NCBI GenBank assembly: GCA_017447805.1
Contig: JAFSMR010000039.1
Coordinates: 33,865-97,864, forward strand
DNA from: Kiritimatiellia bacterium
GTDB taxonomy: Bacteria > Verrucomicrobiota > Kiritimatiellia > RFP12 > UBA1067
Reading direction: 5' to 3'
DNA length: 64,000 nucleotides
This document shows, piece by piece, positions 48,051-61,938 of the stretch; position 1 is the first letter of the stretch, and each line of letters starts with the position of its first letter. Made by a program: the position numbers and the translations under genes. The notes under the pieces are model-generated. The model searched no databases and was not told the DNA's origin. It was given only the letters and a program-made list of their open reading frames with translations.

Positions 48051-50636
48051 TTATTCCTGCGGCGTCTCTTCGCTAGCTTGCTTCGGAGCGTTTTCTTCAG
48101 GCGCAGAAGCGGTTTCGGGTGCGTTTTCGGTTGCACCCCCCGCCCCGCCTTGCTCATCGACCTCTTCGCTTGCGCATACCGAAACAGATACGAGCTTTGC
48201 GCCTTCTGCGAGCCTGACGAGCTTCACGCCCTTTGCATAGCGGCTGTAGACCGTAAATTGCGAAACGGGACTGCGCACCATCTGCTGATCGCTGGTAATC
48301 GAAATTACGCTTTCATCGTCAGATACCGCATGCGCCGCGACTACTTCGCCATTCTTTTCGGCAATCTTGATTGCGATCGTGCCTACTCCGCCGCGCGCGT
48401 GCCTCGTGAATTCCTTGAATTCGCAACGCTTGCCATAACCGTTTTCAGTAGCGAGAAAGAGGGTCTTTTCATCATCGACCGCGTCCAACGAAACTACTAC
48501 ATCATCATCGCGTAGCCTAATGCCGCGAACGCCCGTAGCCGTTCTGCCCATACGCCTTACGTCGCTTGATGCAAAGCGCATCGCGCGCCCAAGGCGCGTG
48601 AACATGATAATATCATCATCCGGCATTACGATTCTTACATCAACTAGCTCATCGCCTTCATCGATATTGAGAGCCCTCTTGCCGCTCTTGTTGACGGTCG
48701 ATAGTTCCGTAAGCTGCGTCTTCTTTACCGTACCCCTCTTAGTCGCGAAGAATACATCCATATCTTCCGTTATTTCACGAATCGGCAATAGTTCGAGAAC
48801 CTGCTCGCCTTCCTGAAGTTCGAGGAAATTGATCAACGGTCTTCCAAAGCCCGTCCTTGCGCCTTCGGGAATCTGATAAGCTTCTTTCTTGAAGAGGCGG
48901 CCCGTATTCGTGAAGAACAAAAGCGAATCGTGAGTCTGCGCAACGAATACTTGACGGATGAAATCTTCTTCCTTGACCTGCGCGCCCTTTACGCCAACGC
49001 CGCCACGATTCTGCTGACGATATTCGGTAAGCGCGACGCGCTTGATATATCCACGGTTCGAAAGAGTAATTACGCAAGGTTCGTCTGGAATCAAATCCTT
49101 TATCGAAACTTCGTTTTCGTCTGCGACGATCTCGGTGCGGCGCGCGGCATCCGCCTTGACGCAATAGCGCGCCTTGATATCGGCGAGGTCTTGACGGATA
49201 ATCGCGTATACCTCGTTCGCATCGGCCAAAATCGCCTCGAGTCGCGCGATTTCCGCAATGAGCTTGGCCATTTCGTCCGTGAGTTTATCTCTCTCTAGCC
49301 CCGTCAGCTGATAGAGGCGCATTTCAAGAATCGCATTTACCTGCAAATCGCTGAATCCAAAGCGCGCTACTAGCCTTGCCTTCGCTTCATCGCGGTTTTG
49401 CGAAGAGCGTATAATCGAAACTACTTCATCGAGATTGTCGATAGCGAGCAGCAACCCGTCGAGAATATGCTTTCTCGCCTGCGCTTTTTTGAGCTCGAAA
49501 CGCGTGCGGCGGGTAATTACTTCGAACCGATGGTCGGTATACGCGCGGAAGAAATCTTTCAAGTTTAGAATCTTCGGCCGTCCGCCATCGATCGCGAGCA
49601 TTATGGCGCCAAATGTCGATTGTAGAGGCGTGTGCTTGTAGAGATGGTTTAGTACTACCTCCGCCATTGCATCACGCTTTACCTCGACTACTATTCTGAT
49701 ATCCGCCTTCGATTCATCGCGTATATCGCTTATGCCGGGGATAATCTTTTCCTTGACCAAATCAGCGGCCCGCTTGATCATTTCGGCCTTGTTTACGCCA
49801 TAAGGAATTTCCGTTATGATAATGCGCTCGCGACCGTTCTGCAAATGCTCGATTGTCGCCTTGCCGCGCACGGTAAGCTGTCCTCGCCCGAATTTGTACA
49901 TGGAAGCAATCCCGTTATATCCGCAAATCTGCGCGCCGGTCGGGAAATCAGGACCCTTTACATAGCGCATCAAATCTTCTACCGTGCAGCTTTCGCGATT
50001 CTGGATATAATAATCTATACCGTCGCAAAGTTCCCCGAGATTGTGCGGCGGAATATTCGTCGCCATGCCTACTGCGATACCTTGCGTTCCGTTCAAAAGG
50101 AGATTCGGCAATTTCGCCGGCAAAACGGTCGGCTCCTCGGTAGTCTCGTCGTAGTTTGGAGCCATATCGACAGTATCTTTTTCGAGATCTCCCAAAAGCT
50201 CCTCGGTGACCCTCTGCATCCTTACTTCGGTATAACGCATCGCCGCCGCGCCATCGCCATCTATCGAGCCAAAGTTGCCGTGGCCATCCACAAGCGGAAC
50301 TCTCAGCGAAAACGGCTGCGCCATTCGCACAATCGTATCATACACCGCCGTATCGCCATGCGGGTGATACTTACCGATTACATCGCCTACGATACGCGCA
50401 GATTTCAAGTGCTTCGTATTCCACGTATTGCCCAATTTGTGCATCGCATATAGACAGCGCCTATGCACAGGTTTTAGGCCGTCGCGCACATCCGGTAGCG
50501 CGCGCCCGATGATTACGCTCATCGAATAATCGATGTAATCCCTAGAAAGCTCTTCCTCTATGCTTACATTCTCTAATGTACCGGCAATGGACTCATCCAA
50601 TGCTTCATTCTTGTCGACATTATCTTCTTCGCTCAT
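48051..50636 (-). CDS. gyrA: DNA gyrase subunit A
   Basis: 861 aa (AMRYTE active-site Tyr, [21 protein letters not shown]) with an acidic C-terminal tail. Confidence 0.97.
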
Positions 50637-50644
50637 ACCCTTAT

Positions 50645-50678
50645 ATTATACCATATTTTCCCCTTCCGGTCTACCCCC
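50645..50678 (-). promoter_or_regulatory. gyrA promoter (near-leaderless)
   Basis: On the minus strand: GGGGG-TAGACC, 17 nt spacer, TGGTATAAT, then 8 nt to the ATG at 50636. Confidence 0.55.
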
Positions 50679-50917
50679 TAAGGGATAACTATCGCACCGC
50701 GTTCAGGGTAGGGCGCGTCGCCCCGCCGCCGCCGCTAGCCTTCGCATCGTGAGCGGCGTTAGCCGCGAATAATCCCAGGTGTTAAACAAAAACCTTCAAC
50801 GGCTCGCCGGGATTATGCCCTACCCCCAATCCATACAGGAAGCACTCGCCTACCGTCCTACACCCGTTCGCCGCCCGAATGGACGGCGACTCGCGTAATC
50901 GTTGATATGTTATAAAC

Positions 50918-51904
50918 TTACTCGATTAGCATGACAATCCCAACATCTTTCAATGCGTTGAAGTTTAATTGCGCTACTTTGTCACCGAGGAAGTATCTCA
51001 TGATGGAATCTGATATCAATTGTGTTGGTGCGAATGGAACAAGTACAGATGTCTTATCCGAAATCCCGTTCATTTCATGTCGCGTCGTAAACACATAGTA
51101 AACCTCGTCTCTCCCGCCTTTGTGGGGAATAGTGAAGTAGCCGAAAGTGAAATCGTCGTTAAGAATCCATTTCGCACTTGATGTGTCATCGGGTCTATTA
51201 CCGTGTTTCTGTTCGAAGTTTCGCATCATTTCCCTTACAATATCAATTTGTGCTGCATTCATCTTTGCGGAAGTACTGGCAAAGGAAAGTCCGTTCGTGC
51301 CATCCTCGCTCCAGCGTATCTCACCGTCTAGGAACTGTGCCAGTTTGCCCTTGATCGAGGTCTCAAATCGTTTGGCAAAGTCAAGATTAAGTCCTGTAGC
51401 GTTCGTGACGGACAACAAGGTGGGAAACGGACTCCAACTTGGATCCGTGAATCCAAGCCACTTGTCTATGTACGCTCTTCTCCCGCACTCCACGCGGAAA
51501 GCAAGCGGCTCGTTCGAAACTGGCAATGGCCGACCACCATTCGTTGTTATGGCATCAGCTGCATTTTCGATCAGGACTCTTTCATTGCCGTGATACGCCA
51601 GCCGAAGGATTGCCTTCATCATTTCCGAACCACGATGCCCGGCCCTGCACCACCATTTCATGGCTTCGGCCTTGTCCGCAACCGTGGCGCCCTTGTCGTA
51701 GTAGGCCCAGCCCATCATCTCTTGTGCCTCGACATTTCCCGCTTCGGCTGCCTTACGGTAGCGTTCTGCATCCTTTTTGGCAACCCCACGTTCTTTACCT
51801 GTACCTTTGGCATTATTTTCTTGCAGATTTTCGCTCTTGGCATAAGCACAAAAAGCAATCGCACTAGTAACTATTATAAAAACTGTGGTTTTATAGCGAT
51901 TCAT
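50918..51904 (-). CDS. Exported Sel1-repeat protein with an uncharacterised C-terminal domain (last gene of the RiPP-like operon)
   Basis: 328 aa with a signal peptide and a Sel1 repeat (AERYRKAAEAGNVEAQEMMGWAYYDKG...AMKWW). Strong SD (AAGGAGG) 18 nt after the ABC gene stop. Confidence 0.65.
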   Translation of the reverse strand: MNRYKTTVFIIVTSAIAFCAYAKSENLQENNAKGTGKERGVAKKDAERYRKAAEAGNVEAQEMMGWAYYDKGATVADKAEAMKWWCRAGHRGSEMMKAILRLAYHGNERVLIENAADAITTNGGRPLPVSNEPLAFRVECGRRAYIDKWLGFTDPSWSPFPTLLSVTNATGLNLDFAKRFETSIKGKLAQFLDGEIRWSEDGTNGLSFASTSAKMNAAQIDIVREMMRNFEQKHGNRPDDTSSAKWILNDDFTFGYFTIPHKGGRDEVYYVFTTRHEMNGISDKTSVLVPFAPTQLISDSIMRYFLGDKVAQLNFNALKDVGIVMLIE

Positions 51905-51922
51905 TGTAACCTCCTTTGTGGG

Positions 51923-53692
51923 TTAAGTAACTCCTGATTGTTCACGCGAAACGAGCGAAGCAAATAACCCCGGTTTTGTCGCAAGGTCGTTGTATGCTCC
52001 TTCTTGGGCAATATGCCCTGATTCCATGACAATGATACGATGCATATTGCGAACAGCAGACAAACGATGACTTATAAAGATTATGGTCTTATCCCGACAT
52101 TCTTCATCAAACATGCGCATTACCCTGTCTTGTGAAAGCTCATCCAAAGGCGCAGTTACTTCATCGAGCAGAACAACGTCTGGGTTCCCGACCAAAGCAC
52201 GAGCTAGTGCAATCTTTGATGCCTGCCCACCTGAAATCCCCTGACCATCCGCTCCGATTCCATAATCTAATGCCTTTAGGACATCCTCATCCTTCTGCAG
52301 CAAATCGTCAGTAAGCGCAACGGAATCCAGTATTCTTTTTAACTGCTTATCACCAAGACAAAGATTGCGTCCGACAAAAATGTTGTCACGAATTGTCCCT
52401 TGAAAAATGAACGGCTTTTGCGAGACATAGGCAACATGTCTGGTGTAATACTCAAAGTTTATTTCTTCAATGTTTTCCCCGCCTAAACAAATCGCACCGA
52501 ATGTTGGCGTAAGATGGCGTATGATCAATCGTAACAGAGTTGATTTACCGCACCCAGACGGGCCTACGATTGCGATATGCTCTCCCGGTTCCACGGAAAT
52601 GCTTATATGCTTAAGAATTGTTACTTTATCCGAAAGGGCGAATTGGACATCTTGTAAGGCCAATCTTGGTTTGATATTATTAGGCAATCGTCCTACGGTA
52701 TGACCATATGAATCGGGCAGTGCTTCAAGTTCCTTTAGCCGTAGAATCGCCTTCCTTGACTTTTGCCAACCAAGGACAATTTCTACGACCTGAACCATTG
52801 ACATATTAAATGCGCCGCATAAGGCGGAAAAGCCCATATAATCTGAAAAAGCGAATCCATTTCCTTCGTGAAATATGAGACACGCCGCTACTGAAAGAAC
52901 TGTGAACTGAGAAATCCCCCACACTAACCCACCAAGATTCCCGAAAAGAATGTGCAAGGTAAAGAGACGGATACGCATATCGCGGGATGGTGTGATTGTT
53001 TCAATTAGGCGTTTGATTGCAAATGGAAATGAATAAGAGGCCCTAATATCGGCCACACCACGCAATGTTTCTGTAGCGACAAGAAACTCTTTTTCCGATG
53101 CGTCTGCCTGTCGTTGGTCAATTGACATCACCTTTCTGTTTCCCAACAAAAATAGCAAATGAAGCGGTGTCATGCCGATAATGACGGAAGCCAGCAATGC
53201 ATTTCCTTGTTGATGGGCGAAATTGAAATTACTTTCTAAGAAATATGGAGAACCAAAATACATTAAGTAGACACTGATTATTAAGCCTAGTACTGCAAGT
53301 GGCGCATCCACCCAAAGAGAAAGATTGTATGTTGTCGCAGTTTCTGTATCACGAGATATGCGTCGAACGACTTTTTCTGGCTCATTCTGAAGTAGGAAGT
53401 CATTTCGAGTGAAAAGAATTTTTTTCATTAGCCTGATTGTCCAGTCGGATATTTGAATTACAGACAATTTCCCTCGAATGACAGAAGAAAACGTCCGCGC
53501 CACTACATTTCCAATGACAGCACACAAGAACAACAGCATAAGTTTAACAATATGAGATGCGCTATCTAGCTTACAATGCGCCAACACATCAGTTACGCTT
53601 TTAAGCGCCATTGGTTCAATGAATGACTGGCAGATCGGCAGAAACATTCCGATCAACCAGCAAATGACAAGCAGATTCAAGTATTTTCTCAT
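51923..53692 (-). CDS. ABC exporter (fused TMD-NBD) without a C39 peptidase domain
   Basis: 589 aa. Six-TM N-half, Walker A GPSGCGKST, signature ISGGQASK, Walker B VVLLDEVT. ATGA overlap with the upstream gene. Confidence 0.85.
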   Translation of the reverse strand: MRKYLNLLVICWLIGMFLPICQSFIEPMALKSVTDVLAHCKLDSASHIVKLMLLFLCAVIGNVVARTFSSVIRGKLSVIQISDWTIRLMKKILFTRNDFLLQNEPEKVVRRISRDTETATTYNLSLWVDAPLAVLGLIISVYLMYFGSPYFLESNFNFAHQQGNALLASVIIGMTPLHLLFLLGNRKVMSIDQRQADASEKEFLVATETLRGVADIRASYSFPFAIKRLIETITPSRDMRIRLFTLHILFGNLGGLVWGISQFTVLSVAACLIFHEGNGFAFSDYMGFSALCGAFNMSMVQVVEIVLGWQKSRKAILRLKELEALPDSYGHTVGRLPNNIKPRLALQDVQFALSDKVTILKHISISVEPGEHIAIVGPSGCGKSTLLRLIIRHLTPTFGAICLGGENIEEINFEYYTRHVAYVSQKPFIFQGTIRDNIFVGRNLCLGDKQLKRILDSVALTDDLLQKDEDVLKALDYGIGADGQGISGGQASKIALARALVGNPDVVLLDEVTAPLDELSQDRVMRMFDEECRDKTIIFISHRLSAVRNMHRIIVMESGHIAQEGAYNDLATKPGLFASLVSREQSGVT

Positions 53693-54279
53693 TTCGGCAA
53701 TGACTTTATTGATGGCCTATTCTCTGTTCTAACTTCAACCGTCAATAATTCTGAATGTCGTGGAAGAGAAAGCTCACTAACTTTGGTTGACAACCCTCGT
53801 CTTAACGCTTCCTTGGATGAGAAAACATGCCCTTTCTCTGTCATATAGTTTTGCCAACTATGTTTGGAAATTCCGGTTTTCCGTGCTAAGTATGAAATGA
53901 CATTCTTGTATTCCTGGCGTAACTTTCTATATTCAAGACCAAGTGCATCAAGAGAGTAATTCCCTGAGAGTTCGATGTTTACGGTGTGAGCAAGAAATTC
54001 TCCTTCGGGGATACATATTCTTTCAATACCTGCTGCGTATATTACAAGCGCGGCAGAGTCGCACCTCGCTGTATTGTATGTAATTAGCTTACAAGACAAA
54101 CCCTCTAGGATTTTAGCTATCCCCATTGCAACAGGAACAGAGCCACCCGGAGAATTAATGAGCAAATGCAATTCCTTTGTCGCATCAGGGACCTTGTCTA
54201 CTAGTGTATCAATCAGCGCTTGCGCCGTTATTGCCGTGACGGGCAAAGGGAAGTTGATGTATTTGCAAGCGTCACACAT
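53689..54279 (-). CDS. ClpP-fold (S14-like) serine protease, candidate leader peptidase
   Basis: 196 aa. LLINSPGGSV matches the ClpP INSPGG block. Ser (CDSAA) and His (LAHTV) align with the ClpP catalytic Ser/His by hand alignment. The Asp position is not conserved. Confidence 0.65.
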   Translation of the reverse strand: MCDACKYINFPLPVTAITAQALIDTLVDKVPDATKELHLLINSPGGSVPVAMGIAKILEGLSCKLITYNTARCDSAALVIYAAGIERICIPEGEFLAHTVNIELSGNYSLDALGLEYRKLRQEYKNVISYLARKTGISKHSWQNYMTEKGHVFSSKEALRRGLSTKVSELSLPRHSELLTVEVRTENRPSIKSLPK

Positions 54280-54297
54280 GGAATGGAACCTCGATCT

Positions 54298-55440
54298 TTA
54301 TAAATACTTTGCCTCTGGTATTGTTTTTAGAAGACGGATGGCATTTTTCGCATTTTGCACCATGTCTTCGTCTAGATGAAAATTCCTCGCCACCAACTTC
54401 TGCACATGCCTTAAGAATAATGTAGCGCACGCTCTCGCCTGAACTTTCTTCATCTTGCAGAATGTTGTGGCACTTGCCGAGATGCCAATATCATCATGTA
54501 TCTTCAGATTCATGGCCGGACATTGCTTACAAACAGCATATATTGGGCAGTTCTTACATCGTGGATCAACAGGAATTTGCTTTATTAATTTTCCATTGCG
54601 TCTAATCCAGTCGGACTTTTCCTTCCCTATTACACACGAAGAAAACAAATGGCAGTTGTATTGTGTGCCATCTGCATCATAAGATACGAGATTGTTATTA
54701 AATGTGCAAAATGGATAGTAATCAGGAGTCTCTTTGAAAAACAACCCGACATCAAATGGAAAAATCCCAGACAGTTTGCCTTCATGTAAATCATCAATGT
54801 ACATTTCCATCAATTCTTCCAATTGTTCTTCGAAGACTATAATATCACTATCTTCCCATTTGAATCCAATGCCTACATCGACAGAAATTGAAATCCTTTC
54901 TGCGACCATTTCCTTAATCGTTTTGGCAAAAAATGGCAATGTATTCCTGAAAAGTACGATTTTGACACGTTCTTTGGGCCAATTATTCGTGAAGAATCTA
55001 TAATCTATGGACTTGTCCGTTCTTGTCAGTTTCTGCGTCTCATTCAATCCGTCAAGGCTTAGTGCGACATGGATCCGTTGACGATTCGCAAGTAGCCATT
55101 CCTTTATTTCATCGGTGAGCAATGTCCCGTTTGTTCTAACGTCCAAACTATATGGCACCGGCATTTCTTCGCTCCAGAGCCACTCCGAAACCGACTTAAT
55201 CAACCTGAAATTCAAAAAAGGTTCGCCGCCGAGAAAAGATATGGCAAGGGCAGATGTCCTATTATCATTTGCAGTACTTTGAAATTCCATCTTCAGAATT
55301 TCGCGACAACATTCAATAGACATGAATGATGTCGTTTTAAAACTTTCATAGCAATATCTACAGTTTAGATTGCAGGCTTGTGTAACAAGCAAAACAACCT
55401 GTTTTGTCTTTGTGTTTCCCAAATCTGTTTTGTAATACAT
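54298..55440 (-). CDS. Radical SAM/SPASM peptide maturase (paralog 2)
   Basis: CNLNCRYCYE (Cx3Cx2C) near the N-terminus. SPASM cysteines Cx12Gx4C (CTFNNNLVSYDADGTQYNC) and CKNCPIYAVCKQC, plus a later FCK. ATG at 55440 preferred; the ORF track has a GTG at 55470 abutting a hairpin. Confidence 0.85.
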   Translation of the reverse strand: MYYKTDLGNTKTKQVVLLVTQACNLNCRYCYESFKTTSFMSIECCREILKMEFQSTANDNRTSALAISFLGGEPFLNFRLIKSVSEWLWSEEMPVPYSLDVRTNGTLLTDEIKEWLLANRQRIHVALSLDGLNETQKLTRTDKSIDYRFFTNNWPKERVKIVLFRNTLPFFAKTIKEMVAERISISVDVGIGFKWEDSDIIVFEEQLEELMEMYIDDLHEGKLSGIFPFDVGLFFKETPDYYPFCTFNNNLVSYDADGTQYNCHLFSSCVIGKEKSDWIRRNGKLIKQIPVDPRCKNCPIYAVCKQCPAMNLKIHDDIGISASATTFCKMKKVQARACATLFLRHVQKLVARNFHLDEDMVQNAKNAIRLLKTIPEAKYL

Positions 55441-55471
55441 ACTTTCAATCTCGCAATCCGACTTGTTCACA

Positions 55472-55516
55472 CAGTGCTATGACAGTGCGATCTTTGTTCG
55501 TCCTGCCATAGCACTG
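55472..55516 (-). promoter_or_regulatory. Intercistronic stem-loop between the precursor genes and maturase 2
   Basis: In minus-strand RNA: CAGUGCUAUGGCAG - 17 nt loop - CUGUCAUAGCACUG (14 bp with one G-U). No U-tract follows. Confidence 0.6.
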
Positions 55517-55562
55517 ACTTTTCATTGTTGCAAGTTCTGTTGCATTATGAACAAGTTTTTTC

Positions 55563-55748
55563 TTACCTTGCCCATGCGCTGCAGCTGCCTTGGCAACCAC
55601 CACTGCAACCATTCTTACAAGACATATAGCAACCACCATCGCAACCGAAGTTGGTCGCATCATGCTTTACGGCGATATCACCATGATGCTCAGAATAAGC
55701 ACCAAGCATGGCTTCAACGGCCTGTAGTTCATTTGCATTGATCTTCAT
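55563..55748 (-). CDS. CxxxC-repeat precursor peptide A (61 aa)
   Basis: MKINANELQAVEAMLGAYSEHHGDIAVKHDATNFG-CDGGCYMSCKNGCSGGCQGSC-SAWAR. SD AGGAGGTG lies 6 nt upstream of this ATG. Confidence 0.8.
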   Translation of the reverse strand: MKINANELQAVEAMLGAYSEHHGDIAVKHDATNFGCDGGCYMSCKNGCSGGCQGSCSAWAR

Positions 55749-55898
55749 ATTTGTCACCTCCTTTCCGACCTTGTTGGTCTAATTGTTTTTAGAATGGATA
55801 TGGATAATCGACAATTTCCATTTCTAGATTTTCGTAGCGACAAGCTCGACAAGCATTACTACAACTCATATTACAACTATCATTTCTTTTATTTGTAT

Positions 55899-56135
55899 TC
55901 AGGATTGGATTCTAGCTACCTTATTATCTCGCCAGATGTTATTACAGCTACCAGCGCAACCTCCACCGCAACGGCTCATGCAGAACATATAACAACTGCC
56001 AGCGCAAGCGCTGTAGCAACCACCATCGCAATTCAAGTTGGTAACATCATGCTTTATAGCGATATCACCCTGATACTCGCAATAAGAACCTAACATTTTT
56101 TCAACTACCAGCAGTTCGTTGATATGGATCTTCAT
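55899..56135 (-). CDS. CxxxC-repeat precursor peptide B (78 aa)
   Basis: MKIHINELLVVEKMLGSYCEYQGDIAIKHDVTNLN-CDGGCYSACAGSCYMFCMSRCGGGCAGSC-NNIWRDNKVARIQS. SD GAGGGA upstream. Confidence 0.8.
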   Translation of the reverse strand: MKIHINELLVVEKMLGSYCEYQGDIAIKHDVTNLNCDGGCYSACAGSCYMFCMSRCGGGCAGSCNNIWRDNKVARIQS

Positions 56136-56156
56136 CTTTGAATCCCTCATTTTAAC

Positions 56157-56363
56157 CTAACGGAACGCTCTAACACATGTTCCAGAACAGCTTCCCATAC
56201 AATGATTCTCAAAACAGCAAAATCGGCATGTATGAACACAACTCATATAGCATGCACCACCGCAGTTAGTCGCATCTTGTTCAATTCTTACATTCCCACT
56301 CTGTCTTTGGAAAGAGTTCAACAGGATTTCTAAGTACCTTAATTCTTGCTCATCTATTTTCAT
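56157..56363 (-). CDS. CxxxC-repeat precursor peptide C (68 aa)
   Basis: MKIDEQELRYLEILLNSFQRQSGNVRIEQDATN-CGGACYMSCVHTCRFCCFENHCMGSCSGTC-VRAFR. SD GGAGGA upstream. Confidence 0.8.
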   Translation of the reverse strand: MKIDEQELRYLEILLNSFQRQSGNVRIEQDATNCGGACYMSCVHTCRFCCFENHCMGSCSGTCVRAFR

Positions 56364-56388
56364 TTCTACTATCCTCCTCTTCTTGAAG

Positions 56389-57591
56389 TCAAACGAAAAA
56401 AGGCGATGTTACCTTAAACGGATCAAGTTTATTTAAGACCTTGTATGCTTCAATTGCTCCTTTAGCATGTATCGCATCTGTTTCATCTAATACTTCTCGT
56501 CTCTGTGCAAGCATCTTGATTTGAAATTCGCAAGCAACAAATTTTTCTGCAAAAACCATCTTGCACCAGTTATGGTCGCGCCTCGCAACATTGCCACGAT
56601 AGCGATAGTTAAAACCGGCACATGTAGGACATACTCTTTTCAATATACACTCTCTACAATATGGATCCTCTGTTGCCTCTGCGCAACTCCATTCAAATTT
56701 TTCGAGTTCCTTTGCTTGGTCTCCTAAGACAATGGGCGCAAAAAGGTGGCAACCATACGCTTTCCCATCAACATCATATGTGACCATGTGTGTTCCTGTT
56801 CCACACCATTTTTCTTGTTTCAAATCTCGTATATTATTTGATGCTTTAATATTGAGCGCCCGTGATAGCAAGTTTATCGGTCTCAATTCAGGCTCATTCA
56901 AATAGGTCTCGCTCAGAGCATGCAGCTGATTAAGATAGGCTTCTGAATCATCGTTATCCCAATCAACACCTTGTGCAAGTGCCGCTTCCAAGGGATACCC
57001 TTTGCGTTGCAACTCCAAAATTCCTTCGGCGAGATGAGGCAATGTTTCCTGGGATATGGTCATGTGGAAACCTTGGTTCGGCCATGTATCATGAAAGAAG
57101 TCCATATCAATAGAACCTTTGTCGGTATCCCTGTTCTTTTTCTGCATTTCGGGCGTGCCATCATATGAAGCACCTACTGAAATGAGATGTTTGTGTTTAC
57201 GAAACCAATTCTTTCTTTCCTCGTCGAAAAGAGTCCCGTTGGTTGTAATGAAAAATATCCATGGCACAGGGAGCGGCTTCCCCTCGGTCCATTCAACAAG
57301 ACGCTTAATGAGATCGAAATTCATCATGGGTTCTCCTCCCATGAGATCAATCTCAAGTTCGTGGAACAGAGGGCTTGTCTGAACGACATGACATTCTTTT
57401 AAAATCAATTCTTTGGCAAGGTCAAATGACATAGTCTTGTTAGACTTATGTTTTTCGTAACAGTAAGTACAATTCAAGTTACATGCATGGGTAATCATAA
57501 GCATGCAAGTTCTTCGTCCAGTATATGGCGGGCGTTCCCAAATTTGAGTTGACATCTTAGGATTTCCCTCTTGACAATCATCTTTATTCAT
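56389..57591 (-). CDS. Radical SAM/SPASM peptide maturase (paralog 1)
   Basis: CNLNCTYCYE. SPASM cysteines Cx12Gx4C (CGTGTHMVTYDVDGKAYGC) and CRECILKRVCPTC, plus WCK. ATG at 57591 with AGGAAAG upstream preferred; the ORF track has a TTG at 57630. Confidence 0.85.
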   Translation of the reverse strand: MNKDDCQEGNPKMSTQIWERPPYTGRRTCMLMITHACNLNCTYCYEKHKSNKTMSFDLAKELILKECHVVQTSPLFHELEIDLMGGEPMMNFDLIKRLVEWTEGKPLPVPWIFFITTNGTLFDEERKNWFRKHKHLISVGASYDGTPEMQKKNRDTDKGSIDMDFFHDTWPNQGFHMTISQETLPHLAEGILELQRKGYPLEAALAQGVDWDNDDSEAYLNQLHALSETYLNEPELRPINLLSRALNIKASNNIRDLKQEKWCGTGTHMVTYDVDGKAYGCHLFAPIVLGDQAKELEKFEWSCAEATEDPYCRECILKRVCPTCAGFNYRYRGNVARRDHNWCKMVFAEKFVACEFQIKMLAQRREVLDETDAIHAKGAIEAYKVLNKLDPFKVTSPFFV

Positions 57592-57607
57592 AGTTATCTT
57601 TCCTAGC

Positions 57608-57796
57608 TTATTCGTATGGATTTTTACCAATCAATTCACTTTCGTTTTGTTGTGAAAAAATTCCGGCGCGGCAGGCTTTATGCACCGCGTTAATGACATA
57701 TATTATGCAGAAAACTGCTACGCCAAGCACTATCGCAAGAGTAGCGAACCATTTTAAACATGACAGAACTTTACGAAGCGGTTTCACGTTTTTCAA
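57608..57796 (-). CDS. Small single-pass membrane protein (hypothetical)
   Basis: 62-aa ORF with one TM helix (WFATLAIVLGVAVFCIIYVI). Non-ATG (TTG) start overlapping the upstream stop. Confidence 0.35.
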   Translation of the reverse strand: MKNVKPLRKVLSCLKWFATLAIVLGVAVFCIIYVINAVHKACRAGIFSQQNESELIGKNPYE

Positions 57797-58419
57797 TTTA
57801 AATCACCAAATTCTGAGTATTCTTGTTCTGCATCATCCGCAATCTTCGCTACTGTTCGTATAGCTTCTGCCAAATCTTTGCTTCTTTCTGCGTCGGCTGC
57901 GGAGAAAACAAACACAAGGGCGTTACGCTCAACTTTCTCTCTCTTCACCTCAACAGTTACTTCCTTTTGCAACCACTCTCCCTCGACCATGCAATTTCTG
58001 TTCAATGTCTTTATCCAACCATTAGGGATTGTATAGTTCTCCTCTGGAACAATGTAGGCTATTGATTCAAGCCTCCTATTGGGCCAAACATACACAAATT
58101 GCCGGCGATTTCCAACTGACACCTTCACTTTATATGATCCGTCTTTTTGCGGTTCATACTTAAGTCGTTCTGCAGCAAGAGCGGTGCGAACACCCAATTT
58201 TGACGATGCTTTTTGCGCAGTGGTTCCAACCATGCGAGTTTGATCACAATCTGCTCGTGAAGATCGTCCAGGCGAAAAATTGGTTTGGGTTGCCTGTTGC
58301 GACCTTTGCGGCCTTCTAGCATCTATACTGGTTTTATATCCTGAATTGCCTTGGGCTATATTTGCTTTAGCATAAGCCGATCCAAGCGCACAAACAAAAC
58401 ATGTAAGCAATAGTTTCAT
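57793..58419 (-). CDS. Hypothetical exported protein
   Basis: 208 aa with signal peptide MKLLLTCFVCALGSAYA, a disordered S/T/Q/R-rich region, then a compact C-terminal domain with an acidic tail. SD GAGG upstream. Confidence 0.6.
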   Translation of the reverse strand: MKLLLTCFVCALGSAYAKANIAQGNSGYKTSIDARRPQRSQQATQTNFSPGRSSRADCDQTRMVGTTAQKASSKLGVRTALAAERLKYEPQKDGSYKVKVSVGNRRQFVYVWPNRRLESIAYIVPEENYTIPNGWIKTLNRNCMVEGEWLQKEVTVEVKREKVERNALVFVFSAADAERSKDLAEAIRTVAKIADDAEQEYSEFGDLN

Positions 58420-58432
58420 GGTGCTACCTCGA

Positions 58433-58738
58433 TTATTTATTCACCCAGCAACCACCAGCGGCATTGCATTGTGGACATGCAGGTGCCATTACACAGTTCG
58501 TACACATCCGTTTACCACCATAACATGCAGTACACGCCCATCCCATAAATGTCCCCGTACCATTACAGACGGTGCATCTCATTTGCCCTGTTCCGTTGCA
58601 ATACGAACATAGGAACTTTCGCCCGTTGCATCGGGGACATGTTACCCAAACTAATTCTGCAATGGCAGAAAGTGCGATCATCGCAATTATAACAAGACCA
58701 ATTACTTTTAAGCGATTGAATCCGAGCTTCTTCTTCAT
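58433..58738 (-). CDS. Membrane-anchored DnaJ-type zinc-finger (CxxCxGxG repeat) protein
   Basis: 101 aa. N-terminal TM helix, then CPRCNGRK, CSYCNGTG, CTVCNGTG, CTACYGGK, CTNC and CPQCNAAG. Confidence 0.7.
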   Translation of the reverse strand: MKKKLGFNRLKVIGLVIIAMIALSAIAELVWVTCPRCNGRKFLCSYCNGTGQMRCTVCNGTGTFMGWACTACYGGKRMCTNCVMAPACPQCNAAGGCWVNK

Positions 58739-59076
58739 TTTACTTTTTCCTTGCGCCCTGTTTTCGTTTCACTTCGCAAGGATAGGGCCTGTCCTCGTTC
58801 CGTGTTGCCACTTACCGTCGGACACGAATCGAGAATATAAAAAACCTCTCTCCGTGTCTCCCTGAGGTTGTGAGAATTACCTTACCTGAAACACTAAGAG
58901 AGGAAGCGCGTTTGCGCTTTCCTGCTCTGTGCCGTCAGGTTTGAAACTTCTCACATTTCAGGGACGACTACAAGCAGCATTGCAAATTGCTGTCGGCGGA
59001 TTTCTCCCCGCCTTATCGTTTTAACTGTCTATGGGCTTTCTCCTTTCATTTCCAGTTTTACGATTTGAGATTGGTT

Positions 59077-59463
59077 TTAGAGCGCGGCGATTTCGTCGGC
59101 GGAAAGGCCGGTCAGTTCTGTGATGCTATCCGCTGGAAGTTTCTTGGACAACATCCGACGTGCGCAGATGACAGCACCTTGCCGCTCCCCTGCATCAAAG
59201 ACTCGTCTGAATTCCTTGTCAATTGAACTGGAAATTGGTTCTCGAAGCACCTTGCTTAGAAAATGACATTCCAGCATAATTGTATCACGAAAGTGGTCAA
59301 TCGTATTGTCACAACGTTCCCAATCCTTCTTGACCATAGGCTTGTTTTCCAGCATTTCAACATACTTCTTGATGTTTATAATGCTGTCAGCCAAGTCGGT
59401 GATTCGACTGGCGATGTGAGCGTCCACCTCTTCTGGTGTCATCTTTACTTCGTGCAGCCCCAT
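59077..59463 (-). CDS. Hypothetical protein with an Rpn-C-terminus-like HTH tail
   Basis: 128 aa. The tail ...LPADSITELTGLSADEIAAL resembles the C-terminus of the upstream PD-(D/E)XK protein (VEQVSKVTGLTPTEVETL). Overlaps that gene by 19 nt. Confidence 0.45.
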   Translation of the reverse strand: MGLHEVKMTPEEVDAHIASRITDLADSIINIKKYVEMLENKPMVKKDWERCDNTIDHFRDTIMLECHFLSKVLREPISSSIDKEFRRVFDAGERQGAVICARRMLSKKLPADSITELTGLSADEIAAL

Positions 59464-60329
59464 AAAGTCTCTACCTCAGTAGGCGTTAAACCCGTAACCT
59501 TTGAAACCTGTTCAACTGACATTCCGACTTCTTTAAGATTACAAATGGTCTGCCTTAATCTTTCCTTCACCGCATCGCGCTCGGCATGTGCCGCGTCAAT
59601 TTGCATCTGCGCCTCTCTCTTGACATCGGCGATAATCGTCCTTCTGCTGCTCACGATGTCCCAGAACCTGTCGTATGCATCCATCTCCGCAGGGCTGTAG
59701 GCAGACTCCCGCACAATCTCCAGCGCTTGCCCCGTATGTGGATTTTCGAGAAGATCCTGCGACACTTCGTCTGCGCCATCATGGCCAATTTCGGTGAGGA
59801 AACGGAGCCATAGAACCTGCATCTTCTTCTCGGTGAGGTTCTTCGCCTTGAACTTGGGGAGTTCGACAAAGACAAGATGCAAACCTTCCAGCACCTTGTC
59901 GGAGTGCAGGTAGTGGACAAGGCGGTAGTAGTGGTAGTAATCGTCCAAATCCGGCTCAAAGGTTGCGTTTACGAGGTTGAGCGAATAAACCGGCTGCAGC
60001 AATTCGTACTCGTCGCCTTTCTCAAGCTGTTTAACGTATGCCTTTGAAGCGTTGAGCAGAACGCGCTGCTTGAACGATGTCGTCCACTCCATCTGCATCT
60101 CGACGATGAACTTGCGCCCGCCAGTCTCCTCGCACCGCACATCAACGGAAGTGTTCTTGTTGATCGGAGTGCGCGGAACCATTTCCGCCGGCAGATATTC
60201 TATCGACTCGACCTGTTTGCCCTCGTCAAGAGGCAACAATGCGTTTAGCAAGCTCGTGACGAGATTTTTATGCTCGCCAAAAACCTTCTTGAATGTCACA
60301 TCCGCCTTAGGATCGAGGTATTTTGCCAT
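59445..60329 (-). mobile_element. PD-(D/E)XK nuclease family putative transposase (Rpn / PDDEXK_2 type)
   Basis: 294 aa. N-terminal YLDPKADVTFKKVFGEHKNL..., DV..E..G..FIVEMQ nuclease core and FVELPKF block. Confidence 0.8.
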
Positions 60330-60359
60330 ATCTTTTTTACTCCTACCGGAAACGCCGAT

Positions 60360-60388
60360 ATTATAGCATATTTTGCCTCGTATTTCAA
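60360..60388 (-). promoter_or_regulatory. Promoter of the Rpn-like gene
   Basis: On the minus strand: TTGAAA, 17 nt spacer, TGCTATAAT, then a leader of about 30 nt with GGAG. No C5/G5 tract. Confidence 0.5.
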
Positions 60389-60599
60389 TATGGCCAAGCT
60401 ATTTTCAGCATTTTCGCGTCTGTTCAAAAGTTCAGGTATTCAGGGTCGGTCAGCTCGCCCTACCATTCAACCTCTCTTCGTTATTCCCAAGTGAGAATTT
60501 GGGTCCTATATTCTCATTTGAAAACTTATCAAAAACCTCAAATATCCCCCTATAAATGGTTGTTTGCCTCGAAATATTCCTAATGGAGGGAAAATCTTT

Positions 60600-60720
60600 G
60601 GTAGATAGGTCCACCGCATTGCAATGGAGCTATCTACCATGGTCGACGGGGCCATCGCATTGCAATGGAGCTATCTACCATGGTCGACAGGGCCACCGCA
60701 TTGCGGTGGCGCTATCGACC
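60600..60720. repeat. Three tandem hairpin-forming units of about 41 bp (REP-like)
   Basis: Units at 60600-60640, 60641-60681 and 60682-60720 (GGT[A/C]GA[T/C]NGG[T/G]CCA[C/T]CGCATTGC[AA/GG]TGG[A/C]GCTATC[T/G]ACC). Confidence 0.85.
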
Positions 60721-60873
60721 AAAAACGAAACCTCCGCCACTTTTCTGGCGGCACCTTCGCGGTGGCCTGAGGGGTGACCGAACAACCTCAGCGCCTTGAG
60801 CGTTAGACAAAAACTCCAACGACAACTCGAAACTCGAACTACGGCGGCGCGCGGCGCCGCCATTCGTCATTTT

Positions 60874-61938
60874 TTACTTAAACTGGATAGATTCTATCAA
60901 GCTATCGAGATATGAGGCGGATTCGTTATTATCATAGAATGATAGATAAGCCGTCTTGCGCGAGTCACGGTCGTAAATAGCGATAAATCGCCAAATAATA
61001 GATTGATTATGCTGTATCAAATAGCATTCTTTAATGCGAACAAGCCTTCCGCTAGATGTATTAGTGCGACTCGAAATTACTTCCTCCAGCGCATCGGCAT
61101 ACAACTCATCGCGATTCGAGAGGCGTATTTCTTCAAATTCGCTCTCATCTTCCCCTCCATACGGCGAAGAAAACACACATCCAAAATATTCAGCCTCTTT
61201 GGTGACAACCGCGACATCGTGCGAACCAGGATCTGGCGTATATGCAAGGATAGCACCGGAAGGAATAGCAAACTTCACATGGCCATCAGTCGCAAAGTTC
61301 GGCGGCATATCAACTTGGGAATACTCTGCCTTACCCCAATTTTCCGCACGCTCCTTTATTCCTAAATATCCTATGCCGTAACTGATTAATGGCAATGCAA
61401 AAAGAAGTATCGCGATAAATTTTGTTTGGCTTGAAGTTTTACGGTATATCTTAGGGAATATATCGGCAACTTGCGCCGACTTGGCAAGATATGCAAGCCA
61501 CAAAATCGGGTAGAAAAAACCTCTTTTGACTTCTATAGCGGAATTTTGCGAAAGCCCCGCCGTTTCGCCACTACCCATATAGAACGAAACAATAGTAGTA
61601 GCGGCATTATAAACGAGCAAATACAAAAGGACAAATCTCAGCCAAAATATTGCATCGGTATCTCTGCGCACGGTACGGATTACGGCGTAAAAACCCATGA
61701 CAAGAATAGTTCCGGCAATAATAAAATCAAGGCTACCCAAAAATGGAGAAATCGCCATTGCGCTTTCGTCAAACTCTTTTGCTGCCGTAGCAATGGAAAG
61801 AAATCCACTGAGTATAACGGTGAAGAGAAAGAATGCAAACCAGCCTTTAATGCGTCTTGATTTCAATTCTTCTCTCGTAGGAGCGCCGACAACCGGGTCT
61901 AGCCCGGTTGTCTCGTTATTAATATAATCTTGGTTCAT
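60874..61938 (-). CDS. Hypothetical polytopic membrane protein with a C-terminal soluble domain
   Basis: 354 aa with about 6 TM helices in the N-terminal 190 aa. Confidence 0.6.
   Translation of the reverse strand: MNQDYINNETTGLDPVVGAPTREELKSRRIKGWFAFFLFTVILSGFLSIATAAKEFDESAMAISPFLGSLDFIIAGTILVMGFYAVIRTVRRDTDAIFWLRFVLLYLLVYNAATTIVSFYMGSGETAGLSQNSAIEVKRGFFYPILWLAYLAKSAQVADIFPKIYRKTSSQTKFIAILLFALPLISYGIGYLGIKERAENWGKAEYSQVDMPPNFATDGHVKFAIPSGAILAYTPDPGSHDVAVVTKEAEYFGCVFSSPYGGEDESEFEEIRLSNRDELYADALEEVISSRTNTSSGRLVRIKECYLIQHNQSIIWRFIAIYDRDSRKTAYLSFYDNNESASYLDSLIESIQFK

Follow-up and report, generated by a model that had tools for sequence, protein, structure and literature searches.

The CXXX-repeat system represented by the models TIGR04115 and TIGR04114 is defined bioinformatically, and to our knowledge Cys-x3-repeat targets have for more than a decade been database models only, with no characterised product or structure. 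We analysed a gene cluster that resembles this system in placing a radical S-adenosylmethionine (SAM) gene of the SPASM type beside peptides with strict Cys-x-x-x periodicity. It lies at positions 50918-58738, on the minus strand, of a 64,000-nucleotide stretch of contig JAFSMR010000039.1 from a Kiritimatiellia bacterium (assembly GCA_017447805.1), which we refer to as the window. The cluster is probably a mobile cassette for the biosynthesis of peptides that are ribosomally synthesised and then modified post-translationally (RiPPs), and its predicted product is very probably a set of exported, enzyme-crosslinked, Cys-rich peptides. A radical SAM/SPASM RiPP on Cys-x3 repeats is known ground; new here are that the maturases form a clade of their own and come as a pair, that the precursors have their own conserved leader, and that the peptidase has a ClpP fold. 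Full-text literature searches returned no description of this cassette family and no product data.

Unlike the TIGR04115/TIGR04114 system, the window family has a conserved leader of about 34 aa and usually two radical SAM paralogues, here named rSAM1 and rSAM2. Further genes encode a ClpP-fold peptidase and an ATP-binding cassette (ABC) exporter, neither of which adjoins the maturase of the TIGR04115 example used for comparison (L095:6836-8935), an enzyme scoring 488.7 bits that sits next to a 126-aa CXXX-repeat protein without a recognisable leader. The surroundings of that locus are phage-like by inspection only (lysin-like and tail-like proteins).

PapB/PapA (freyrasin), a ranthipeptide system with Cys-X3-Asp thioethers, is a second relative. 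The PapA substrate carries repeated in-line Cys motifs with three-residue spacing, on which PapB makes multiple small thioether rings (PMC9413430, PMC10739248). The window peptides likewise have repeated Cys with three-residue spacing, and the window maturases align over nearly the whole 330-position PapB profile. They differ in having no RiPP recognition element (RRE) at the N-terminus, where it comprises residues 1-85 in PapB (PMC12715619), and the acceptor Asp/Glu at +4 in PapA is replaced by the next Cys in the window family, which does not show the Cys-X3-Asp/Glu pattern. CteB, the SCIFF maturase (thermocellin, Cys-Thr gamma-thioether), shares with the window enzymes a SPASM domain with seven Cys, implying an open site on an auxiliary cluster; QhpD, CteB, and Tte1186 likewise have seven SPASM Cys (PMC10352776, a Bacteroidales RiPP-mining paper that deals with a different cluster, YcaO plus radical SAM). 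CteB is, however, 20-21% identical to the window maturases and has an RRE of about 100 aa, and the SCIFF peptide occurs in single copy in Clostridia, seems to have a housekeeping role, and shows another Cys pattern; a putative SCIFF locus (L014) has no adjacent protease or exporter gene, unlike the window cassette. ChlB (PDB: 9GM3) is also a SPASM maturase of similar size (375 aa) with no separate RRE-sized domain. It is a multiple cyclophane synthase, a triceptide maturase (function cited in PMC12912966). The C-C cyclophanes are made at aromatic-x-basic motifs instead of Cys repeats, and ChlB is only 18-19% identical to the window enzymes.

The initial annotation, made from the sequence alone, described eleven packed minus-strand genes in an AT-rich region, and coordinates, spacings, and base composition agree with it. 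All 11 open reading frames (ORFs) are present in the ORF list of the window across 50918-58738. In transcription order the intergenic distances are 13, -4, 16, 25, 21, 150, 92, 18, -4, and 18 nt, so that all gaps are about 25 nt or less, or overlaps, save the two spacers flanking the third precursor gene, pepC. The GC content is 0.416 over 51923-57796 (ABC gene to tm62) versus 0.496 in the remaining window, and the GC content at third codon positions (GC3) is 0.34-0.46 for the genes from ZnF101 through the ABC gene versus 0.54-0.65 in gyrA and other flanking genes. The central features of the cluster are the following.

56389-57591, minus strand: rSAM1, radical SAM/SPASM maturase of 400 aa from the ATG at 57591; the conserved anchor enzyme of the cassette.
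56157-56363, minus strand: pepA, 68-aa precursor with 9 core Cys; ribosome-binding site (RBS) AGGAGG 9 nt upstream.
55899-56135, minus strand: pepB, 78-aa precursor with 8 core Cys, all Cx3-spaced; RBS GAGGG before the ATG at 56135.
55563-55748, minus strand: pepC, 61-aa precursor with 6 core Cys, all Cx3-spaced; RBS AGGAGG.
55472-55516, minus strand: stem-loop, a 14-bp hairpin between pepC and rSAM2.
54298-55470, minus strand: rSAM2, second radical SAM/SPASM maturase of 390 aa, 31% identical to rSAM1.
53689-54279, minus strand: ClpP-fold serine peptidase of 196 aa, predicted cytoplasmic; the proposed leader peptidase.
51923-53692, minus strand: ABC exporter of 589 aa, with fused ABC_membrane and ABC_tran domains.

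A search with rSAM1 found more than 300 homologues at 50-95% identity. We compared the gene neighbourhoods of 13 loci, one of them a 95%-identical relative of the window (L001), from Kiritimatiellia, Akkermansia, Chlorobiaceae, Prevotella, Lentisphaeraceae, Selenomonadaceae, a Firmicutes metagenome-assembled genome (MAG), and unassigned MAGs. All-against-all comparison yielded exactly four shared protein families, with both radical SAM paralogues falling into one. The rSAM/SPASM enzyme, a Cys-repeat peptide of 55-90 aa, and the ClpP-like peptidase occur in all 13 loci, and rSAM2 and the ABC exporter in 12, with a gene order of ClpP-like and ABC genes that differs among cassettes. Of the eleven-gene system first proposed, rSAM1, the peptide, rSAM2, the ClpP-like peptidase, and the ABC exporter are thus conserved, while the other genes are lineage-specific: ZnF101 and tm62 recur in the 95% relative only, and exp208 and p328 in none of the loci compared. 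The smallest version, in Selenomonadaceae, comprises rSAM1, a peptide, and the ClpP-like peptidase only, and is located on a relaxase/ERF element beside a type I restriction-modification system. The five-family module co-travels across distant anaerobe phyla, often beside integrases; tyrosine integrases flank the cassette in four loci (L003, L182, L183, and L166), and L004 has a relaxase/ERF element. The cluster is horizontally acquired. The interpretation as a RiPP cluster, already made in the initial annotation, holds up because this comparison shows co-inheritance of the module, with Cys-repeat peptides adjoining homologous radical SAM genes throughout and in several phyla.

All three precursor genes have GGAGG-type ribosome-binding sites and paralogous leaders, and the most likely start codons of pepB and pepC are at 56135 and 55748. 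The pepB and pepC genes share 77% DNA identity over 136 nt (repeat D1) and, on this similarity, are a diverged tandem duplication. By profile search, the peptide family comprises 78 clusters at 90% identity. When 1.84 billion proteins were scanned exhaustively with HMMER, there were 154 hits at the level of 50%-identity representatives. The family has a leader of about 34 aa with the consensus MKMNxEALKALELKLAEYSKxNGxIAEHxSxNxN, which is conserved across phyla, far more than the core, and the Asn directly ahead of the first Cys is more than 90% conserved; the window leaders are divergent variants of this consensus (e.g., MKINANELQAVEAMLGAYSEHHGDIAVKHDATN). The core consists of C-x-G-(S/G/T) units with 4-13 Cys (median 6). 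Gaps between Cys are exactly three residues in 342 of 435 cases (79%), and in 619 of 795 (78%) in a larger set. Gly occupies position +2 in 64% of the Cx3 units, and 74% of them have Ser, Gly, or Thr at +3. The core is composed of 22% Cys, 20% Gly, 14% Ser, and 8% Thr, and Asp (2.7%) and Glu (0.6%) are rare. Generically, a RiPP cluster is defined by a maturase gene next to that of a precursor in which the leader is conserved and the core varies, which is the arrangement here, in 13 of 13 loci.

None of the NCBIfam, Pfam, or PADLOC models scored above threshold for the window precursors, which leaves a conserved leader that has no curated model. The best trace of a known family is a sub-threshold match of pepA to TIGR04117 (20.6 bits, cut-off 50), and the peptides also match TIGR04114 weakly. 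Only pepC could be traced to an NCBI protein accession (MBR0197775.1, annotated as hypothetical), and the run of accession numbers suggests that NCBI has left pepA and pepB unannotated. The loci L001 and L002 hold a copy of pepC that is 97% identical, with two leader substitutions in 61 aa. In a close relative, an ENA contig encodes a 154-aa protein (P0154) in which the pepA stop is read as Gln, resulting in a pepA-pepB fusion with two leader-core units. P0154, P0160, P0166, P0197, P0199, and P0230 carry a precomputed Pfam match, PF27846.1, which may be a very recent Pfam repeat model overlapping the peptide core. The 150-nt spacer between pepB and pepC holds a 26-aa ORF at 55789-55869 on the minus strand (MSCSNACRACRYENLEMEIVDYPYPF) with a C-x3-C-x2-C pattern and no obvious RBS; it could be what is left of a decayed precursor or an ORF that is there by chance.

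The stem-loop after the third precursor gene was borne out by folding. The hairpin at 55472-55516 has a free energy of -35.6 kcal/mol (z = -7.13), and none of 200 shuffled sequences folds as well. No significant RNA structure is seen in the spacer between pepB and pepC (z = -1.1). Seven of eight related loci have strong, non-homologous hairpins at the same place after the precursor gene. In bacteriocin and lantibiotic operons, such a hairpin raises the ratio of structural-gene to enzyme transcripts, and the hairpin described here probably terminates transcription in part or stabilises the mRNA, which would set the ratio of precursor to enzyme. Scans of the sequence for consensus promoters and terminators performed no better than on shuffled sequences, and an Rfam scan of 50500-61000 detected no RNA family.

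Both maturases score above the Pfam thresholds for Radical_SAM (PF04055) and Fer4_12 (PF13353). For rSAM1, the most likely start is the ATG at 57591 rather than the start of the longest ORF, which reaches 57630. An alignment of 82 maturase sequences that includes both window paralogues shows an invariant CX3CX2C motif (C37/C41/C44) and seven further invariant Cys (263, 281, 312, 315, 321, 324, and 343). The latter form the SPASM pattern C-x12-G-x4-C ... C-x2-C-x5-C-x2-C ... C, with a last spacing of x2 where the canonical one is x3, and rSAM2 carries the same seven-Cys pattern as rSAM1. There is no RRE in either enzyme, because the CX3CX2C motif starts at about residue 37, which leaves no room for a domain of about 85 aa. 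Orthologues of rSAM1 are 45-72% identical across phyla and those of rSAM2 28-52%, i.e., rSAM2 diverges faster. The exact rSAM2 sequence, read from its GTG start, gave no match when looked up, probably since the public record uses another start codon.

No NCBIfam model passes its curated cut-off for either maturase. The best match is PapB (NF047865; 132.6 bits for rSAM1 and 112.5 for rSAM2, cut-off 340), followed by the CXXX-repeat family TIGR04115 (106.4 and 84.3, cut-off 350), the nif11 maturase (102.3 and 76.5, cut-off 518.7), the SCIFF maturase TIGR03974 (93.5 and 68.7, cut-off 425), and the anaerobic sulfatase-maturating enzyme anSME (TIGR03942; 49 and 40, cut-off 349); the QhpD model is also among the top hidden Markov model (HMM) matches. 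TIGR04115 and SCIFF/ScfB, named in the initial annotation as possible relatives, are therefore near neighbours in these rankings, but membership in either is not borne out. Judged by scores that are far below every curated cut-off, both maturases are a sister clade to PapB, TIGR04115, and CteB and not members of those families. As a positive control, the genuine TIGR04115 enzyme of L095 (488.7 bits) is 22-26% identical to rSAM1 and rSAM2.

The AlphaFold2 model of rSAM1 (predicted local distance difference test, pLDDT, 90.6) has a partial TIM barrel and a SPASM fold. CteB is the closest solved structure by sequence (E = 4e-16) and the closest fold in the PDB (5WHY/5WGG; Foldseek E = 3e-17, template modelling (TM) score 0.62-0.64). 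CteB, ChlB, and anSME are matched at TM scores of 0.55-0.64, with ChlB, anSME, and TigE ranking after CteB. In Akkermansia and on some other contigs (P0016; P0020 = L003:1004-2971), rSAM1 homologues are 620-655 aa long and have an N-terminal extension of about 260 aa that is weakly similar to sigma-70 region 4 (PF08281, E = 2.5e-4, sub-threshold). A sigma-like domain joined to a RiPP maturase would be unusual.

The 196-aa protein matches CLP_protease (PF00574) at 58.8 bits (cut-off 20.2) and the ClpP equivalog model TIGR00493 at 33 bits (cut-off 308.6). It shares the fold family of ClpP and of the phage prohead proteases related to it (MEROPS clan SK), and it keeps two of the catalytic residues: Ser75 and His98, which are invariant in the family, align to the catalytic Ser and His of ClpP. 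The triad Asp is replaced, and about 35 N-terminal residues of genuine ClpP are missing, which we take to be the axial gating loops; without these the peptidase probably has no AAA+ partner. Unlike ClpP, it is embedded in a RiPP-type cassette. In NCBIfam, the ABC protein best matches bacteriocin and type I exporters, in no case above the cut-off. Pfam Peptidase_C39 does not match it, and it aligns to TIGR03796 from profile position 155 onwards, so it is not a peptidase-containing ABC transporter (PCAT). The combination that had been called unusual from the outset, with no RRE, a ClpP-fold peptidase, and an ABC exporter without C39, is hence confirmed by these searches.

In the mechanism we propose, the hairpin would keep precursor mRNA in excess of enzyme mRNA, and rSAM1 would bind the leader directly. 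The RRE-less ChlB offers a precedent, since its crystal structure includes the precursor's leader region (the ChlB PDB entries matched by Foldseek are titled as such complexes). Substrate Cys thiolates would dock at an auxiliary cluster for which, given the seven Cys of the SPASM domain, as in CteB and QhpD, no more than three protein Cys ligands are predicted. The 5'-deoxyadenosyl radical would then take a hydrogen atom from a nearby carbon to give a Cys-S-C thioether, and repetition of this step along the core would string small rings into a ladder. The paralogue rSAM2, which is absent from the minimal Selenomonadaceae version, may add further crosslinks, as another set or of another type, in keeping with the core subtype. 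The truncated ClpP-like peptidase would cut off the leader in the cytoplasm, the ABC transporter would export the matured product, and ZnF101, tm62, and exp208 are candidate immunity or periplasmic handling factors.

Multiple Cys thioether crosslinks are the likeliest modification of the core, and we consider the chances of this chemistry about even. Three observations point to this chemistry: the high-scoring relatives PapB, CteB/SCIFF, and QhpD make thioethers, Cys is the sole invariant core residue, and the SPASM count of seven Cys equals that of CteB, QhpD, and Tte1186. Several points weigh against this and other parts of the RiPP interpretation. The homology behind the thioether assignment is distant (20-26% identity to CteB and the TIGR04115 member), and structurally similar SPASM enzymes perform other chemistry, namely cyclophane formation in ChlB and oxidation of Cys or Ser in anSME. 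TigE is a cyclopropylglycine synthase. The core has no strictly conserved acceptor residue, only Gly and Ser/Thr preferences. The Selenomonadaceae minimal system does not have any exporter, and we saw no outer-membrane export component, though a host of the Planctomycetes-Verrucomicrobia-Chlamydiae (PVC) group should be diderm. The peptidase does not have the third residue of the triad, and its AlphaFold2 model is poor (pLDDT 51.7). A 2023 review of RiPP leader proteases mentions no Clp, S14, or S49 enzyme, and since it lists no ClpP-fold leader peptidase, we infer the role of this protein from co-occurrence.

Could the cluster simply belong to the TIGR04115/TIGR04114 system, with nothing new about it? 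The same Cx3 periodicity, the second rank of TIGR04115 for both enzymes, the weak matches of the peptides to TIGR04117 and TIGR04114, and one family member (the L087 peptide) that exceeds the TIGR04114 repeat cut-off (30 versus 20 bits) would all fit. We regard this as unlikely. The enzymes reach 106.4 and 84.3 bits where 350 are required and the genuine L095 enzyme, only 22-26% identical, scores 488.7; the L095 target is a leaderless-looking protein of 126 aa in a phage-like context with no adjacent ClpP-like or ABC gene; and the conserved leader of the window family matches no NCBIfam or Pfam model above threshold. An improbable reading of a different kind is that the Cys-repeat peptides are intracellular metal, redox, or Fe-S binders, or a defence or addiction module of mobile elements, the activity or turnover of which is controlled by the radical SAM enzymes and the ClpP-like protein. 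It draws on a core with 22% Cys and 20% Gly, which is metallothionein-like, on the normally degradative ClpP fold, and on two neighbourhoods: the exporter-less Selenomonadaceae cassette, its strongest argument, which lies in a mobile setting resembling a defence island, between helix-turn-helix regulators and the type I restriction-modification system on the relaxase/ERF element, and L181, which lies among TIR and caspase-like genes. The dedicated ABC exporter in 12 of 13 cassettes, the accessory genes for exported or membrane proteins, and the RiPP signature of conserved leader and variable core all speak for export and maturation instead, and PADLOC matches consist of generic radical SAM or ATPase similarity only.

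Two further readings are barely credible. The enzymes are similar in size to anSME, and anSME and CteB are among their best structural matches, as would be expected of housekeeping anSME or SCIFF/ScfB maturases with incidental small ORFs beside them. This is contradicted by the scores for TIGR03942 (49 and 40 bits versus 349) and TIGR03974 (93.5 and 68.7 versus 425) and by the retention of the peptides in 13 of 13 loci. Clostridia matches at about 25% identity (L013-L085) are a separate family, which is SCIFF-maturase-like by the size and N-terminus of L014 (458 aa) only. The initial annotation had named a sulfatase partner as what would speak against a RiPP cluster; there is no Pfam sulfatase domain in the cluster proteins, and the RiPP interpretation stands. 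Similarly, the ClpP-like protein could be a phage prohead protease in prophage morphogenesis DNA, given that its best NCBIfam and PHROG matches are "head maturation protease, ClpP-related" (48 and 60 bits), that phage capsid genes lie about 2.9 kb downstream of the cassette in L001, and that one homologue is on an IMG/VR contig. Yet 48 bits compare with a cut-off of 120, capsid, portal, and terminase genes are not adjacent in the window or most loci, the gene always accompanies the radical SAM and peptide genes, and the IMG/VR contig has integrases, not structural genes, beside the radical SAM gene. HMM scores and gene neighbourhoods effectively refute the sulfatase maturase, SCIFF, and prophage morphogenesis readings.

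More tentatively than the mobile RiPP cassette itself, we suggest that it represents a new RiPP class, which is possible but less likely than not. The class would combine RRE-less SPASM enzymes, a (C-x-G-S/T)n core giving very small rings with an undescribed crosslink or regiochemistry, a truncated, partner-less ClpP-fold leader peptidase, and spread on integrative elements among gut and rumen anaerobes from at least five phyla. An example crosslink would be from Cys-S to a Gly or Ser/Thr carbon within each four-residue unit.

Four further genes, at both ends of the cluster, are lineage-specific accessories.

58433-58738, minus strand: ZnF101, 101 aa with an N-terminal membrane anchor and six CxxC motifs, four of which are CxxCxGxG/K-like.
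57793-58419, minus strand: exp208, 208 aa with a Sec-type signal peptide (MKLLLTCFVCALGSAYA).
57608-57796, minus strand: tm62, 62 aa with one membrane-spanning segment; its gene shares 4 nt with exp208.
50918-51904, minus strand: p328, 328-aa exported protein with one weak Sel1-like repeat.

None of the four matches a family above threshold in NCBIfam, Pfam, or PADLOC. The label "DnaJ-type zinc finger" for ZnF101 comes from the CxxCxGxG motifs seen by eye; DnaJ_CXXCXGXG (PF00684) is sub-threshold (13.9 bits versus 32.7, E = 0.067), as is GRXCR1-2_C (E = 0.015). ZnF101 has an island-like GC3 of 0.40 and homologues in L001/L002 only; tm62, a possible immunity or export helper, is likewise kept only in L001/L002. 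The exp208 protein is alone in its 90% cluster, absent from all other compared cassettes, and encoded at a GC3 of 0.34. The name Sel1 for p328 was not upheld, though NCBI uses it ("sel1 repeat family protein"): residues 59-92 form a single sub-threshold match to PF08238 (13.3 bits, gathering score 30.7, E = 0.13). Its membership of the system is doubtful: other cassettes do not conserve it, and with a GC3 of 0.50 it is nearer the host value than the island value. Most cassettes have exported, lipoprotein-like, or membrane accessory genes, with sequences unrelated to those of the window.

The cluster is flanked by gyrA (GyrA is MBR0197770.1 by exact-sequence look-up) and by a PD-(D/E)XK (Rpn-type) transposase-like gene, which is located upstream of the cassette both in the window (59445-60329) and in L001; the peptidase between these flanks is annotated as ClpP at NCBI. 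No att-type flanking direct repeats were found around the low-GC island. Upstream of the PD-(D/E)XK gene, a 41-nt unit that has internal dyad symmetry is repeated in tandem, in three copies, in the intergenic region 60582-60721 (58-nt registers 74-78% identical, arms 76-85% complementary); the copies look like a repetitive extragenic palindromic (REP) or miniature inverted-repeat transposable (MITE)-like element. In L001, phage capsid, cement, and head-tail-joining genes occupy L001:12040-13652, and the L166 locus, an IMG/VR contig, has three integrase genes upstream (L166:2794-9719). In the Chlorobiaceae locus (L007:9644-11038), about 1.8 kb separate the precursor gene from rSAM2, and ORF fragments in this spacer resemble, by eye, a disrupted transposase, suggesting an insertion sequence.

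The cassette follows canonical RiPP logic and is a solid candidate for a new RiPP class with inferred chemistry. Its short leader-bearing substrates and compact enzymes should suit anaerobic co-expression, and the natural core variants, with 4-13 Cys, are usable for engineering densely crosslinked peptides. If the proposed roles are true, the ClpP-fold enzyme would join the RiPP leader peptidases, a first for the ClpP fold, and the maturases would be a further case of leader recognition without an RRE. The biological role of the peptides can only be guessed at, and our guess is inter-bacterial antagonism or signalling. Because the cassette is mobile and is found in Akkermansia, Prevotella, Selenomonadaceae, Kiritimatiellia, and other anaerobes, its product could matter for competition or signalling in the gut and rumen.

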